61,655 bases of DNA from Chloroflexota bacterium (GCA_016190625.1 JACPQF010000089.1:1-61655), one strand, 5' to 3'; positions 3,371-54,535 are shown, counted from the first letter of the stretch. Translations and numbers: made by a program. The notes: generated by a model not told the origin, from the letters alone.

Positions 3371-3532
3371 GAAAGTTCTCCCCTCAGGTATTTGTGAAAC
3401 CACAGATGAATCCTTCTTCGGAAGGATGAACGCGAATAGACTCGGATGTTTGTTTCTTGCGAGAAGTCTCCGACCACGGGCTAAAGAACAACATCTCAAC
3501 CCCAAGAGCCACTTGAGGGAGGGGGTCTCCCC

Positions 3533-3985
3533 TCAACCCTCCAACTCGGCGGCAGAGCGCAGCTTCTCCAAGGAGTTTGCCAGCTTCTCGAGGTCCTCTA
3601 TTGGCAGGCGGCGAAGAATGTTCGATGCCTGGGTCAGCCTCACCTGCCGCAGCTTGCCAGCGGCGGCCGCGCCCTCGTCGGTGAGCCTGTTCATCACCAG
3701 TCGGCGGTCCTCCGGACTCTCGTATCGCTGGACCATGCCGTGCTCCACCAACCGATCGAGGATCCCCGTCATGGTAGGCAAGGTCACTCTGAGGGCGGAG
3801 GCCAGCGCCCCTACCGAAGCTGGCCCGCCATGCAAGAGAACCATCAGCACCTTCAACTGGGGCATGGTAAGGTCAAGCTTGAGCATCGCCTCCATGTCCT
3901 GCGGAAGGGAGTGCATAAGCACTTCCCCAAACAGCCGTACAACCCGCTCGATCAGCGCCTGTGACGATTCCTGTTCCTCGGCCAT
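3533..3985 (-). CDS. MarR family transcriptional regulator
   Basis: LTMPQ...LDRLVEHGMVQR..PEDRR..LTDEG signature; directly upstream of the MFS gene. Confidence 0.92.
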   Translation of the reverse strand: MAEEQESSQALIERVVRLFGEVLMHSLPQDMEAMLKLDLTMPQLKVLMVLLHGGPASVGALASALRVTLPTMTGILDRLVEHGMVQRYESPEDRRLVMNRLTDEGAAAAGKLRQVRLTQASNILRRLPIEDLEKLANSLEKLRSAAELEG

Positions 3986-4195
3986 AGCATTGCCCTCCCA
4001 TACAATCGCATCGCCTGATATTCAGACAATACTTGGTTTAACCCTAAGCATTTGTGAGACAATAATAGAATAGGTGAAACAAAACATTTTGTCAATAGGA
4101 AAACGTGTTGACCGTCGACACCATGCTCTCTGCAATTGACAGACACAACATATCTGCCCTAAAATGAACATGGGAAAGACGCGAGGAGGCTCACG

Positions 4196-4756
4196 GTGGT
4201 AGCTCATCTGGTGAGATGGCAGTTCACGGTGGACGATTATCACCGCATGGCGCAGGCTGGTATCCTGGGCGAAGACGATCGCGTCGAGCTCATCGAAGGC
4301 GAGGTCGTAAAGATGACTCCTATCGGTCGCCGTCATGCCTCATGCGTCATTCGCACCAACGAAACCTTCGTGAAGGCGTTCAACGACGTCGCCGCGATTT
4401 CCGTCCAAAACCCCGTGGTGCTCGACCAATATACCGAGCCTCAGCCTGATTTCGCCCTTCTTCGCCGCCAGCCGGACTTCTATGCGTCGCGCCTTCCGAC
4501 CCCCGCGGACGTGTATTTGCTCGTGGAGATCAGCGACAAAACGGTCGAAGCAGACCGCCGGGTTAAGGTGCCGCTATACGCTAAGAGTCACGTCACCGAG
4601 GTATGGCTGGTAGATGTCGAGCAAGAGACTATCACCGTCTACCGCGATCCCTCTCCCGATGGTTATCGCACTGCTCGCGTGGCACGCCGAGGCGAACACA
4701 TTGCCCCATTGGCATTTTCGGATAGACCTATTGCGGTAAGCGATGTTCTCGGCTGA
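4196..4756 (+). CDS. Uma2 family endonuclease
   Basis: FTVDDYHRM..RVELIEG, EPQPD, LLVEISD..D..K..LYA; GGAGG RBS before GTG. Confidence 0.92.
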   Translation: MVAHLVRWQFTVDDYHRMAQAGILGEDDRVELIEGEVVKMTPIGRRHASCVIRTNETFVKAFNDVAAISVQNPVVLDQYTEPQPDFALLRRQPDFYASRLPTPADVYLLVEISDKTVEADRRVKVPLYAKSHVTEVWLVDVEQETITVYRDPSPDGYRTARVARRGEHIAPLAFSDRPIAVSDVLG

Positions 4757-4771
4757 CCAATGCGGCTTGTC

Positions 4772-5917
4772 CTAGCTGCTGGCCAACTGGGCAACCCACT
4801 TGCGCAAGAAGGTGTCCGATAGGCGGTACTTGCCCTTGGGAGAGGCCTCCACGATATCTTCCTGGATCAGGTATTTCAGCGATTTCTGCACCGTCGACGC
4901 CGGCCCGAGGCCGTTCTTCAAGCGGTACGCCTGGGAGAACACACCTTCCCCGTTCCCGATAGCCAAAGCGATGAGAACGAGACGCCGATGGGGGGACAGC
5001 TTGTCCCATAGCTCCTTGCAGCGGGCGTCTTCCGCATCGAGGACCTGGCTCAGGGCCTGCTCCACAACCTCGGGCGTGACTGCTACCCCTTCGGCGTCGG
5101 CAATCGCCCAGGCGAAATAGCATAGCTCCTGCGTATCGTGAGGATGACGCTCCGTGATTGCGAGGATGCGCCCGATAGCCTCCGGGACAATTCGCCGTCC
5201 CGATGCTCGGAAACGTTCGCCAATAAACGCACTGAAGTCTTCTTCTGCTATCTCGCGTAAACGAACGGGCTTGGCCATTCGATACAGCGCCTCGCTTTTG
5301 TGCGAGAAAAGGCTCTCCATGAGATGCCGCTTGCTGCCCAAGAAGACGTGGGACACGTCGTTCTGGTTCTGGAAAATGGACCGCATCACCCCGGGAAGCG
5401 CGGGGTCAATCGACATTACTTCCTGGAACTCGTCCAGAATCAGCGCCACTCGGCGCTTTCGATCTGAAGCGACCTTCGCCAGGATCTCTAGCAGGCCCTC
5501 GATAGTTCGATCTATGTCTCGCGTCACCGGGCTCGCGTCGAATTCGAAAGAGTAACTGCCATCGGGTTTCAGAACGATCTTGGGCCGCACTGGCAGAGAG
5601 GAGAAGAAGTCTGCAGCCCGCTGCAGCATCCGTTCGTGGGTAGGAATAAGCCCCTCGTGGATGGCCGCCGCCAGGCGCTCCGCGAGTTTGTCCTTTGCGG
5701 GGGAGCGGAAAAGGTCGATGTAGGCTACCAGGACATCCCGCTTCCTCAGGTGTTCGGCAGCCTGAAGGACGAGCGATGTCTTGCCATAGCGCCGCGGCGA
5801 GATAACAACCAGATCCTGTCCATTGAGGACGTCCGATTCTATCTCTGTTAGCTCGCCCTCCCGGTCGGTGAAGTACTCTCCCGAGACTACCTTGCCATAG
5901 CGGAACGGGTTCGTCAT
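4772..5917 (-). CDS. Archaeal-type AAA ATPase with C-terminal winged helix
   Basis: NPF.YG..F.DRE, SPRRYGKTS, LILDEFQ, C-terminal helix + YRLSDTFL. Confidence 0.85.
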   Translation of the reverse strand: MTNPFRYGKVVSGEYFTDREGELTEIESDVLNGQDLVVISPRRYGKTSLVLQAAEHLRKRDVLVAYIDLFRSPAKDKLAERLAAAIHEGLIPTHERMLQRAADFFSSLPVRPKIVLKPDGSYSFEFDASPVTRDIDRTIEGLLEILAKVASDRKRRVALILDEFQEVMSIDPALPGVMRSIFQNQNDVSHVFLGSKRHLMESLFSHKSEALYRMAKPVRLREIAEEDFSAFIGERFRASGRRIVPEAIGRILAITERHPHDTQELCYFAWAIADAEGVAVTPEVVEQALSQVLDAEDARCKELWDKLSPHRRLVLIALAIGNGEGVFSQAYRLKNGLGPASTVQKSLKYLIQEDIVEASPKGKYRLSDTFLRKWVAQLASS

Positions 5918-52749: not shown

Positions 52750-53005
52750 AAGATTATGTGGATAAGGAGCATGTTTCGGTGGATAAAGCAACCCTCATGT
52801 GGATATGTCGATGCTTTCTGCCACCGCTATGCTCGATTTGCCTCCTGCTCACCGGGAATCAGCGAAATCGCAACGGTCCTTTTGTCCAGAGATCTCCACA
52901 GGAATCCAAGGGCATGTTTTCCGGTCATTTCCCTTTTCCTCCCTTGTCCTCACCACTTATCCACTTATCCCACTGCACTACTATCTACTTCTATATTCAT
53001 ATACA
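52750..53005. other. oriC: Probable chromosomal replication origin (oriC)
   Basis: DnaA boxes at 52757 (perfect TGTGGATAA), 52778, 52798, 52892, 52957, 52965; CTA-trio run 52978-52993; AT-rich intergenic region. Confidence 0.75.
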
Positions 53006-53028
53006 GGAAATAGTTCGAACGGGGAAAT

Positions 53029-54189
53029 CTAGGTGCCTATCGGTCGATACGTATCTATGGGAAGCTCGCGTCCGCGAAACCGCTCGATCGATAGGGGGCC
53101 GATGTCGATAGAACTTCGCCGTAGAAGGATGAGCTGAGCAATGGCGCGGCCGATGGCTGGGGAGAGCATGAATCCGTGGCCGCTGTGGCCGGCAGCGGCC
53201 ACGAATCCCTCAAGGCCGGGGACCTCGCCCAGAACCGGCTCGTGATCGGGGGTGATATCGCGTGGGGCTGCCCAACCGGATACCAGGGCCGCTTCCTCGA
53301 AGGGGGGAAAGCGGTAGGTAGCATATTCGGCCACCTGAGGGGCAAAGCTCCAATCGAGAGTGGTGTCGAAGTTGCTTGGCTCGCCTGGATTGCCAAGGCA
53401 CATGAGTAGACCCTCGCCCTCCCGTCGGAAGTAGAAATCGTGGTGAGTGTCGAATAGAACGGGGGCATTGTCCGGAACCCTATCGAAAGGCCGGGTGAAC
53501 CAGAGCATGCGCCGGAAGGGCCGAACAGGCAGGTCGATGCCGGCGGTCTCGGCCACCAGGGCGGCCCAGGGGCCGGCGGCGTCGACGACCACGGGCGCCA
53601 ACACCCTGCCACCGTCGGTTCGCACACCCATCACGCGGCCCTTCGCCGCCTCCACTGCGGTGACCTCAGTCCACTGCACCACGGCGGCGCCGTGCTCCTT
53701 CGCCAAGTCGGCGAAGATGGTAGTGGCGAGATGGGGGTCCGTGTAGCCATCGCGGGCGCAGTACATAGCTCCAAGCACATCTTCCACGCGCAAGGAAGGG
53801 ACCAGATCGCGCACAGCGGCTGCGGACAGGATCTGGGAATCGACGCCCAGGCGCCGCTGCAGGGCGACCTGCCTCCGTGCCTCTTCCAGCTCTGCCGACG
53901 CAAAGAGGAGATGGACATATCCGTGCTGGTGGAACTTGAGGCCCAAGGACTTCTCGCCGGCCAGATCCTCGAAGAAGGCGAGGCTTTCCTTGGCCAGCCG
54001 CACGTGCATCTCCGTGGCGAACTGCTGGGTTATCAAGCCGGCGGCGTGGCCCGTCGAGCCCGAAGCCAAAGCATTCTTTTCGATCAGCGCCACCTTGGCG
54101 CCCATCCTGGCCAAATGATAGGCCACCGACGCGCCCGTGCAGCCCCCGCCAATGACCACCACATCCGCTGTCTTGGGCAGTTCCGCCAC
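53029..54189 (-). CDS. FAD-dependent oxidoreductase (DAO/sarcosine oxidase beta family)
   Basis: VIGGGCTG, SGSTGHAAG, AAGPW, TPDHEPVLG, GHSGHGFMLSP; likely GTG start at 54189. Confidence 0.9.
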   Translation of the reverse strand: MAELPKTADVVVIGGGCTGASVAYHLARMGAKVALIEKNALASGSTGHAAGLITQQFATEMHVRLAKESLAFFEDLAGEKSLGLKFHQHGYVHLLFASAELEEARRQVALQRRLGVDSQILSAAAVRDLVPSLRVEDVLGAMYCARDGYTDPHLATTIFADLAKEHGAAVVQWTEVTAVEAAKGRVMGVRTDGGRVLAPVVVDAAGPWAALVAETAGIDLPVRPFRRMLWFTRPFDRVPDNAPVLFDTHHDFYFRREGEGLLMCLGNPGEPSNFDTTLDWSFAPQVAEYATYRFPPFEEAALVSGWAAPRDITPDHEPVLGEVPGLEGFVAAAGHSGHGFMLSPAIGRAIAQLILLRRSSIDIGPLSIERFRGRELPIDTYRPIGT

Positions 54190-54387
54190 GACTCCGTTTC
54201 CCCTTTCAGGCCCATTATACATAAAGAGGCGATGGTTGTCAGCCCTCAGAAGCATCAAAGCACCTGGCCATGTCCTTCGAGTAGACTATTGCCAGGGGAC
54301 CGCGTTGGTGTTATAATAGCCCTAGGTGGAGCCCTTCTGAAAAGGGAGAGGCCCCCAGTACCTTACAACACATTGAGGCGGCAACAA

Positions 54388-54535
54388 CGAACCTTTAAAT
54401 CAGTCCCGTGAGGCTGTTAAGGAGAGAGCGTCGTAGTCCTTCGGAGAAGGATGCCAACGGCGGGCCCGGCATGGCCTTCAGCTACGGGCCGCAACCAACT
54501 TCCCTCTTACCAGCTTCGGTAAGAGGGTTTTTGTT
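54388..54535 (+). promoter_or_regulatory. PyrR-binding attenuator leader
   Basis: cctttaa..AGTCCCGTGAGGCT..aagg binding loop; terminator ccctcttacc/ggtaagaggg + tttttgtt at 54502-54535. Confidence 0.93.

Follow-up and report, generated by a model that had tools for sequence, protein, structure and literature searches.

Several systems of short, repeated palindromic DNA have been described. Repetitive extragenic palindromic (REP) sequences and bacterial interspersed mosaic elements (BIMEs), with the REP doublets forming hairpins (REPINs) and the REP-associated tyrosine transposases (RAYTs), form a group of short, high-copy and mostly extragenic palindromes. Rickettsia palindromic elements are simple insertions of 100-150 bp which lie in frame within protein genes and also within RNA genes without destroying them. 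The GC clusters and hairpin elements of yeast and sponge mitochondria are non-coding, measure 30-50 bp or more and occur in intergenic regions as well as in rRNA, tRNA and coding genes, often with target duplications. HIP1 of the cyanobacteria and the uptake sequences are lineage-specific, occur far above chance and in genes in all frames, and sometimes form inverted pairs able to fold into hairpins. Template-switch (quasi-palindrome) mutations make or perfect hairpins over a short patch by local copying and cause small length changes. Here we compare with these systems a mini-hairpin, TCCTTC-N3-5-GAAGGA, which was first noticed by a reading of the sequence alone (the sequence-only reading) in a stretch of 61,655 nt from a Chloroflexota bacterium (GCA_016190625.1, JACPQF010000089.1:1-61655); the whole stretch is referred to as the window.

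Like the palindromes of the REP/BIME group the motif is short, present in high copy number and mostly extragenic, and it caps a subset of the REPs headed by GTAGGGGCG. Unlike them it possesses no GTAG head, occurs on four or more unrelated REP stems as well as in non-REP hosts, stands solo in two thirds of its copies, and no cognate RAYT was found for it. It shares with the Rickettsia elements the in-frame copies in protein genes, but it comprises only 16-22 nt and replaces resident sequence. The mitochondrial GC clusters are likewise very short, GC-rich and proliferating hairpins, whereas the present motif is bacterial-chromosomal, smaller and not accompanied by a duplication. It differs from HIP1 and the uptake sequences in that its half-site is not enriched, its spacing is variable, its coding copies are strongly depleted and its sites are unconserved between genomes. 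Patch overwriting is shared with the quasi-palindrome mutations, yet local copying yields no single constant stem. In contrast to miniature inverted-repeat transposable elements (MITEs), neither a target-site duplication nor a longer autonomous element was found, and unlike the single-strand hairpin ends of IS200/IS605 the motif does not lie beside tnpA or tnpB in the genomes and Y1 transposase genes examined. It is a variant within the short palindromic repeats that lacks the defining properties of REPs, MITEs and driven oligomers. A literature search limited to leading titles and abstracts found no publication describing it.

The motif is abundant and sequence-specific, prefers the tips of other hairpins, stands in place of resident sequence at comparable sites, is depleted in coding DNA, shows no strand bias and is patchily spread. 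We infer that one active process writes it. Our preferred reading, which falls somewhat short of probable, is that of a sequence-specific, DNA-level and strand-symmetric mini-palindrome which may spread by overwriting and subsequently ride on larger repeats.

Abundance, anatomy and spread of the hairpin

The window is contig C61 of a metagenome-assembled genome (MAG) of a Chloroflexota bacterium from groundwater (G000), which comprises 3.18 Mb on 160 contigs with 60.5% G+C and is 65% complete. The window contains six copies of TCCTTC-N3-5-GAAGGA and G000 as a whole 236 (210 of them with loops of 3-4 nt), compared with a genome expectation of 1.6-2.2 copies from hexamer frequencies. The frequency above chance which the sequence-only reading requires is thus borne out on the scale of the genome (236 copies vs about two). 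In the window, five copies with loops of 3-4 nt stand against an expectation of 0.01 from dinucleotide-preserving shuffles, and none of 100 shuffles reached five. The motif is the commonest 6-bp-stem hairpin of G000 (237 with loops of 3-6 nt, 158 of them with 4 nt), followed in the ranking of unrelated stems by parts of REPs, and the reversed order GAAGGA..TCCTTC was detected only five times. The half-site TCCTTC/GAAGGA alone is not enriched (3037 occurrences vs 1442-3497 for hexamers of the same composition); about 2,565 half-sites in G000 are solo.

Beside the 236 consensus copies the genome holds 169 copies with one mismatch. Compensated double variants, which preserve the pairing of the stem, number 27 over 18 alternative stems and lie near the chance level, indicating that the sequence itself is over-represented and not merely the fold. 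The arms are constant and the loops vary, as the sequence-only reading had stated: more than 40 distinct loops with lengths of 3, 4 or 5 nt were found. The core is flanked on each side by a purine and a pyrimidine, respectively (R...Y; G..C in 111, A..T in 50, G..T in 31 and A..C in 25 of the 236 copies), and the 151 copies outside GTAGGGGCG REPs follow a broader consensus with C-M-G before and C-N-G after the core. With this wider consensus of the solo copies the unit appears to be about 18-22 nt long. Within one family of MITEs the loop shows one change in 36 sites and the hairpin stem one change in 108 sites, compared with 95 in 1386 elsewhere in the MITE. Since loops are stable inside one MITE family, the loop diversity dates from many separate origins and not from later decay.

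In 30 relatives of the class, one per family, the motif counts were 63, 24, 11, 10, 7, 7, 5 and then 0-3, with 0-2 for the backwards control. A genome of another family of the same class (G007) contains 65 copies capping other, unrelated hairpins, and no GTAGGGGCG head was present in the 15 G007 motif contexts fetched. A species-wide scan with an 18-mer carrying YGCR loops, which covered one genome per species in 185,579 species, matched at least 116 stretches. Among the matches listed, 73 of 80 loci belong to Chloroflexota, mostly Dehalococcoidia, and the recurrent hosts are repeats of the type GTCATTGCGAG-motif-CGAAGCAATC, GTAGGGGCG REPs and terminators of the type AAAAGCCCCG-motif-CGGGGCTTTT. 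The distribution is wide but patchy in the Chloroflexota, mainly in Dehalococcoidia.

The first of these hosts, a repeat of the form GTCATTGCGAG/GTCATTCTGAGGAG ... CGAAGCAATC/CGACGAAGAATCT with the hairpin at its centre, was seen in many Chloroflexota MAGs (L032, L034, L037, L039, L055, L060, L066, L067, L071, L080, L088, L092 and L097) and has kin in G000 at C53:4569 and C82:17742.

Host sequences and replacement of resident patches

The evidence for replacement comes from sites at which a sequence with the hairpin can be compared with one without it. In a family of MITEs of about 170 bp, 13 members were aligned, ten of which read GGGCG-motif-CGCCC (one with a stem mismatch), two GGGCG-CTTCCCGAAG-CGCCC, and one bears a third tip. 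The window contains a member of this family at 48533..48702 (plus strand; terminal inverted repeats CTTAGTGGTGCATCCGG...), in which an exact copy at 48581..48596 forms the tip of the first hairpin (GGGCG-hairpin-CGCCCCTAC) and a second, REP-like hairpin follows at 48631. A metagenome scan retrieved one close orthologous contig of the window (L017, about 80% identity) and a distant one (L018); in L017 the position of the MITE is taken by a plain REP, and the contig is empty at the window motif sites compared. No consistent direct repeats were found flanking the 147 copies with singleton contexts at four boundary offsets; one offset showed a mild excess of 2-nt repeats (27 vs about 12 at random positions, a control which was run with another offset). 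Wherever the before-state could be derived, a short patch appears to have been replaced with a small net length change, which we favour over insertion with target duplication. The sequence-only reading had likewise proposed replacement instead of a target-duplicating insertion, and its proposal agrees with the lack of a duplication and with the comparisons of the MITE, the tRNA-Gly-like gene and the genes for a dihydrolipoamide dehydrogenase and an SNF2 helicase described below. It had also taken an empty REP and filled ones for both allele states of a single REP; these turned out to be distinct paralogous copies belonging to sub-families and do not represent one locus. The supposed empty form at 58810..58837 is a REP with another type of tip (GTAGGGGCGAAC-GGCC-GTTCGCCCCTAC).

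The five exact copies listed in the sequence-only reading were all located as given, as were its four variants. The copy at 3411..3426 (TCCTTC-TTCG-GAAGGA) lies among short repeats of the GATGAA type upstream of a gene for a major facilitator superfamily transporter, in a context nearly identical to that at C101:52341. The copy at 45987..46001, with a 3-nt loop, is part of a composite repeat (GGGCGGGCA-hairpin-CACCGCCCTTAC) which has 12 members in the flank clustering. The remaining three are those in the MITE, in the T arm of the tRNA-Gly-like gene and in the PyrR leader. The list lacked a sixth exact copy, at 25191..25207, whose loop has 5 nt. Of the variants, the one-mismatch copies at 35098-35113 and 47067-47082 form the tips of REPs at 35087..35124 (GTAGGGACGAA...TTCGTCCCTAC) and 47056..47092 (GTAGGGGCGAA...TTCGCCCTAC), respectively, whereas that at 22419 has a degenerate right arm (GGCGGA) and belongs to a REP at 22408..22445 within a MITE-like element with CTAAGTAG ends. 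The fourth (TCCCTC-AAAAA-GAAGGA, one mismatch, 15020..15036) caps a hairpin resembling a terminator (AAAAAAGCCAG...CTGGCTTT), which lies downstream of the gene for biotin ligase (14193-14975). A further one-mismatch copy at 56821..56836 falls into a predicted open reading frame (ORF) at 56629-57588, according to a crude gene call.

Throughout G000 the motif frequently caps a longer hairpin: at least 7 of 12 flank positions are paired in 82 of the 236 copies, while about 0.5% of random sites reached at least 7 of 10, in agreement with the enrichment at hairpin apices predicted by the sequence-only reading. A REP head of the GTAGGGGCG type lies within 14 nt on one or both sides of 85 of the 236 copies and is lacking in 151. 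The genome contains about 200 REPs with this head (411 heads), the next sequence being AACGGCCG for 91 heads and AATCCTTC for 54. Three other GTAG-headed stems (GTAGACCG..., GTAGTGGCCGCC... and GTAGCTRTCAG), a CCCTCACCCTAACCCTCTCCC palindrome, the 170-bp MITE and short tandem repeats serve as further hosts, and the motif-bearing host families also occur with different tips. Clustering of the flanks resolved 165 contexts for the 236 copies, 147 of them singletons, and nested, tandem and half-overwritten copies were detected at C23:1872, C63:7868/7890, C123:23681/23701 and C55:13398. The intergenic copies roughly track intergenic length and show no bias to gene ends, intergenic type or transcription direction. 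Taken together with the strand-dependent flanking pairs G..T and A..C, which are equally common, this points to a strand-symmetric phenomenon at the level of DNA.

Gene calls were obtained with a crude codon-usage caller, according to which ORFs cover 83% of G000. Predicted ORFs contain only 71 of the 236 copies, 34 of them close to an ORF end and 37 deep inside, at more than 150 nt from both ends, and the other 165 lie outside, so that the motif is depleted in coding DNA, as had been predicted. The claim of the sequence-only reading that every copy is non-coding applies to the exact copies of the window, where the coding call at 3411 results from an over-extended ORF, and fails for the genome as a whole. 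The deep copies represent all three frames and all three loop lengths, and in solo coding copies the pairing of the flanks does not exceed that of random DNA. In the dihydrolipoamide dehydrogenase of G000 the sequence at the motif is TVLQPKD where relatives of 77, 76 and 63% identity have TV-ATGD; the protein is otherwise intact and full-length and aligns with its homologues from end to end. The SNF2 helicase reads WWSFHRRTRLG at the motif, compared with WWK-KP-AHLG and WWQ-KPAARLG in relatives. Both genes differ from those of their relatives over about 15-18 nt only, the coding change being a clustered substitution with one additional codon. Mfd contains two tandem motif units and six residues more than the Mycobacterium smegmatis protein. 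In uvrC (G000 C102:24537-26555, L158) an in-frame block of about 70 residues, which separates the two halves of the RNase H-like endonuclease domain, consists of three GTAGGGGCG REP heads, which encode repeated PVGAN peptides, and one hairpin.

Five of 20 host proteins inspected are DNA repair proteins or helicases, namely UvrC, Mfd, an AddA-like helicase-nuclease, RecG (N-terminal region) and the SNF2 helicase (besides uvrC, loci on G000 C147, C24, C151 and C45; L146, L147, L160 and L149). Length alone may account for this, or else the bias may be genuine. Uptake sequences have also been reported in DNA-repair genes. REPs are likewise found within repair genes, as stated by Di Nocera et al. 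(2013, PMC3733652).

Two structured RNA sequences of the window carry the hairpin. The tRNA-Gly(GCC)-like gene at 49406..49489 (plus strand) contains the copy at 49456-49471 instead of the T stem's 5' strand and a portion of the T loop, with 23 nt in the T arm where the Rfam model (RF00005) has 11. It scores 36.7 bits (gathering threshold 29), has one mismatch in the anticodon stem and is rejected by ARAGORN, and its minimum-energy fold is not a cloverleaf. The gene occurs once in G000 and is missing from the orthologous contig L017. The PyrR-type leader at 54388..54535 (plus strand; RF00515), the middle hairpin of which is capped by the copy at 54437-54451, scores 51.4 bits against a gathering threshold of 54 (E = 2.5e-6) and precedes a gene encoding a phosphoribosyltransferase domain. 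Among the host elements named by the sequence-only reading the GTAGGGGCG-headed REPs were thus confirmed, while the tRNA gene and the leader are to be regarded with the reservations given by ARAGORN and by the gathering threshold. When 18 PyrR leaders of the class were compared (the window and 17 relatives), 16 lacked a copy; the other two are that of G000, with the exact copy at the middle hairpin, and that of G027, whose terminator is capped by a copy with one mismatch. Rfam retrieved the tRNA and the PyrR leader and no other RNA family; together with the lack of bias and the equal frequency of G..T and A..C described above, this led us to reject a function at the RNA level.

Contig C22 of G000 carries an intact tRNA-Gly(CCC) gene followed by a partial duplicate with the hairpin instead of CAGAATG. 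A stand-alone tRNA-Gly(CCC)-like gene in G007 (C90:5472-5558, minus strand; L016) shares these hairpin boundaries; here the hairpin occupies the position of the anticodon stem's 3' strand, and the gene has a consensus promoter (TTGACA-17-TATACT), an encoded CCA and a terminator. A conserved tRNA-Gly arrangement was considered and rejected, given that of 301 class genomes searched just two, G000 and G007, have the exact arrangement CCAAG-motif-TCG and that the fold has no anticodon stem. In the 65%-complete G000, ARAGORN detected 15 and Rfam 14 tRNA genes, and at least two hairpin-disrupted tRNA-Gly-like sequences were missed by ARAGORN.

Alternative explanations and the search for an agent

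According to our preferred reading, a resident patch of roughly 4-15 nt would be replaced by the hairpin with a small net gain in length. Hairpin tips already in place would be the preferred targets, whether in REPs, in MITE hairpins, in terminators, in attenuator stems or in tRNA arms, and unstructured DNA would be hit less often. Copies in genes would persist only where the frame and the protein tolerate them, as in loops and linkers, and a copy once placed in a REP or MITE would multiply passively with its host. The process may have been active independently in several lineages of Dehalococcoidia and other Chloroflexota. The stronger form of this proposal is more doubtful: a Chloroflexota process writing one palindrome of 18-22 nt over patches, including those in essential and tRNA genes, would make it the smallest sequence-specific 'mobile' DNA unit known, with an enzyme or template of an undescribed kind.

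Several points weigh against overwriting by such a process. The before-states were derived from paralogues or protein alignments only, the sole close orthologous DNA contig is L017 with about 80% identity, and no presence/absence polymorphism at one locus was seen in the contigs of the source study; the crude gene calls and the incompleteness of the MAG (65%) count on the same side. The conservation of the stem above the rest of the MITE could reflect selection for function rather than mobility. Finally, neither an enzyme nor a template nor an autonomous parent was found in the searches among Y1, TnpB, IS110 and contig ends.

The main rival explanation regards the motif as a selected or driven binding site, a DNA or RNA hairpin recognised by a lineage-specific factor, that was built in place by mutation and selection or biased conversion, so that hairpin tips and protein loops are simply where it is tolerated. 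We consider it unlikely on balance. Its sequence specificity without covariation, the stems being more conserved than the surrounding MITE, the presence throughout the phylum, the coding copies in the form of clustered substitutions with only one additional codon and the several hosts that are DNA-repair genes would all fit such a site. However, site conservation between genomes is lacking (16 of the 18 PyrR leaders and contig L017 are empty), the half-site alone is not over-represented, and many members of the class do not contain any copy. The spacer of 3-5 nt makes a dimeric binder of duplex DNA unlikely, and the absence of an orientation to transcription or gene ends as well as the occurrence in broken tRNA copies and in nested and tandem copies argue in the same direction.

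It seems improbable that the motif is a mere tip variant of GTAG REPs moved by Y1 transposases of the RAYT type, with the solo copies being decayed REPs. A GTAGGGGCG-type head accompanies 85 of the 236 copies within 14 nt, three more GTAG-headed stems bear the motif, and one Y1 gene is present in G000. Alternative tips in one REP family, families with alternative complex loops and intragenic REPs are described by Di Nocera et al. (2013, PMC3733652). Against this explanation, 151 of the 236 copies are headless, the flanks of solo coding copies pair as random DNA, the differences of about 15-18 nt in the dehydrogenase and SNF2 genes leave no space for a REP, and the 15 contexts fetched from G007 are all without the GTAGGGGCG head.

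The Y1 gene itself also speaks against this explanation. The single Y1 (IS200-like) gene detected in the 65%-complete G000 (C142:4122-4571; L001/L180) is an open frame without ATG, GTG or TTG ahead of the HUH motif. Compared with five Y1 genes from class relatives, it shares 24-25% identity with two and does not align with three. Members of its sub-family (41-46% identity) were detected in three of 151 class genomes, namely G000, G007 (C208) and G044 (C18, C64 and C432). G007 has 65 copies of the motif, whereas G044, with three orthologues, has none, and no orthologue was found in the motif-bearing genomes G027, G025 and G011. The genes of the sub-family are flanked by a different repeat, of the type GGCTAAAGCC...GGGCTGAG...AGCCCAC, which may be the cognate repeat of this Y1 sub-family. 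About 110 nt downstream of the G000 gene there is one motif copy, no GTAGGGGCG REPs flank the gene, and none of the five Y1 genes retrieved from relatives has the motif next to it. Since family search, alignment, the orthologue search in 151 class genomes and the flanks reveal no co-distribution, a RAYT/Y1 agent is not supported, and the attribution to an HUH/RAYT enzyme made by the sequence-only reading is likewise unsupported.

Other candidates for an agent were also pursued. TnpB (PF01385) was not found in G000, G007, G027 and G025, and the TnpB and IS110 families showed no co-distribution with the motif in 31 genomes. The idea that the hairpin is an excision footprint or a solo end of a long element was rejected, as no such element was found at contig ends or half-sites and the half-site is present in only 5 of 320 contig ends. 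Likewise, a longer autonomous element sharing its ends was not found in the incomplete MAG, the contig ends of which are dominated by an unrelated 215-bp element.

Still less probable is intra-strand template switching, i.e. fold-back copying at an existing half-site in which the new arm is copied from the old one and overwrites resident sequence. Perfect arms with variable loops are explained by it, as are replacement and small changes of length; CTTC or GAAG was already contained in several of the inferred before-states, and the symmetric differences on both arms of the REP tips need a palindrome-perfecting step. The mechanism predicts hairpins of any sequence, yet one stem accounts for 236 copies, and about 2,565 solo half-sites have remained unconverted. 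Template switching alone, which the sequence-only reading had offered as an alternative to an enzyme, leaves unexplained why one particular sequence gets written.

Chance or an assembly or library artefact, conceivable in a fragmented MAG of 160 contigs many of which are broken at one MITE, is effectively refuted by the expectation of about two copies, by the presence of the motif in numerous assemblies made independently, among them megabase contigs and a complete chromosome, by the contigs of three runs from a single groundwater study, from which the MAG probably derives, that span motif copies without differences, and by the motif-encoded peptide within an intact full-length protein. Uncovered parts and odd joints in the contigs of these runs were left out of account.

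If the overwriting reading is true, selfish or driven DNA would have a new way of reshaping bacterial genomes, in which an invariant mini-hairpin takes over gene patches and the tips of other hairpins; the unit would differ from a transposon, which has ends and duplicates its target. The same reading would also account for tRNA genes that tRNA finders miss, for the enlargement of leaders and terminators and for additional loops of repair enzymes in these MAGs. The motif would be relevant to the annotation of Chloroflexota genomes, and a single 16-mer is a tractable marker for phylogenetic profiling of the responsible factor over thousands of genomes.

Further features of the genome and the window

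The genome of G000 contains at least 81 near-identical copies of a CTAG-bounded MITE of about 215 bp with terminal inverted repeats of about 20 bp (CTAGAAGCGCAGCCGAAAAG...), two of which are located in the window at 1-138 and at about 23722-23940 (minus strand). About 88 of the 320 contig ends of G000 fall within this MITE, and the fragmentation of the assembly is largely explained by contigs breaking inside it.

Furthermore, the window encodes a Type IIG restriction-modification enzyme of 1052 residues (39967-43125, minus strand) with Eco57I/MmeI-like methylase and TaqI-like specificity domains.

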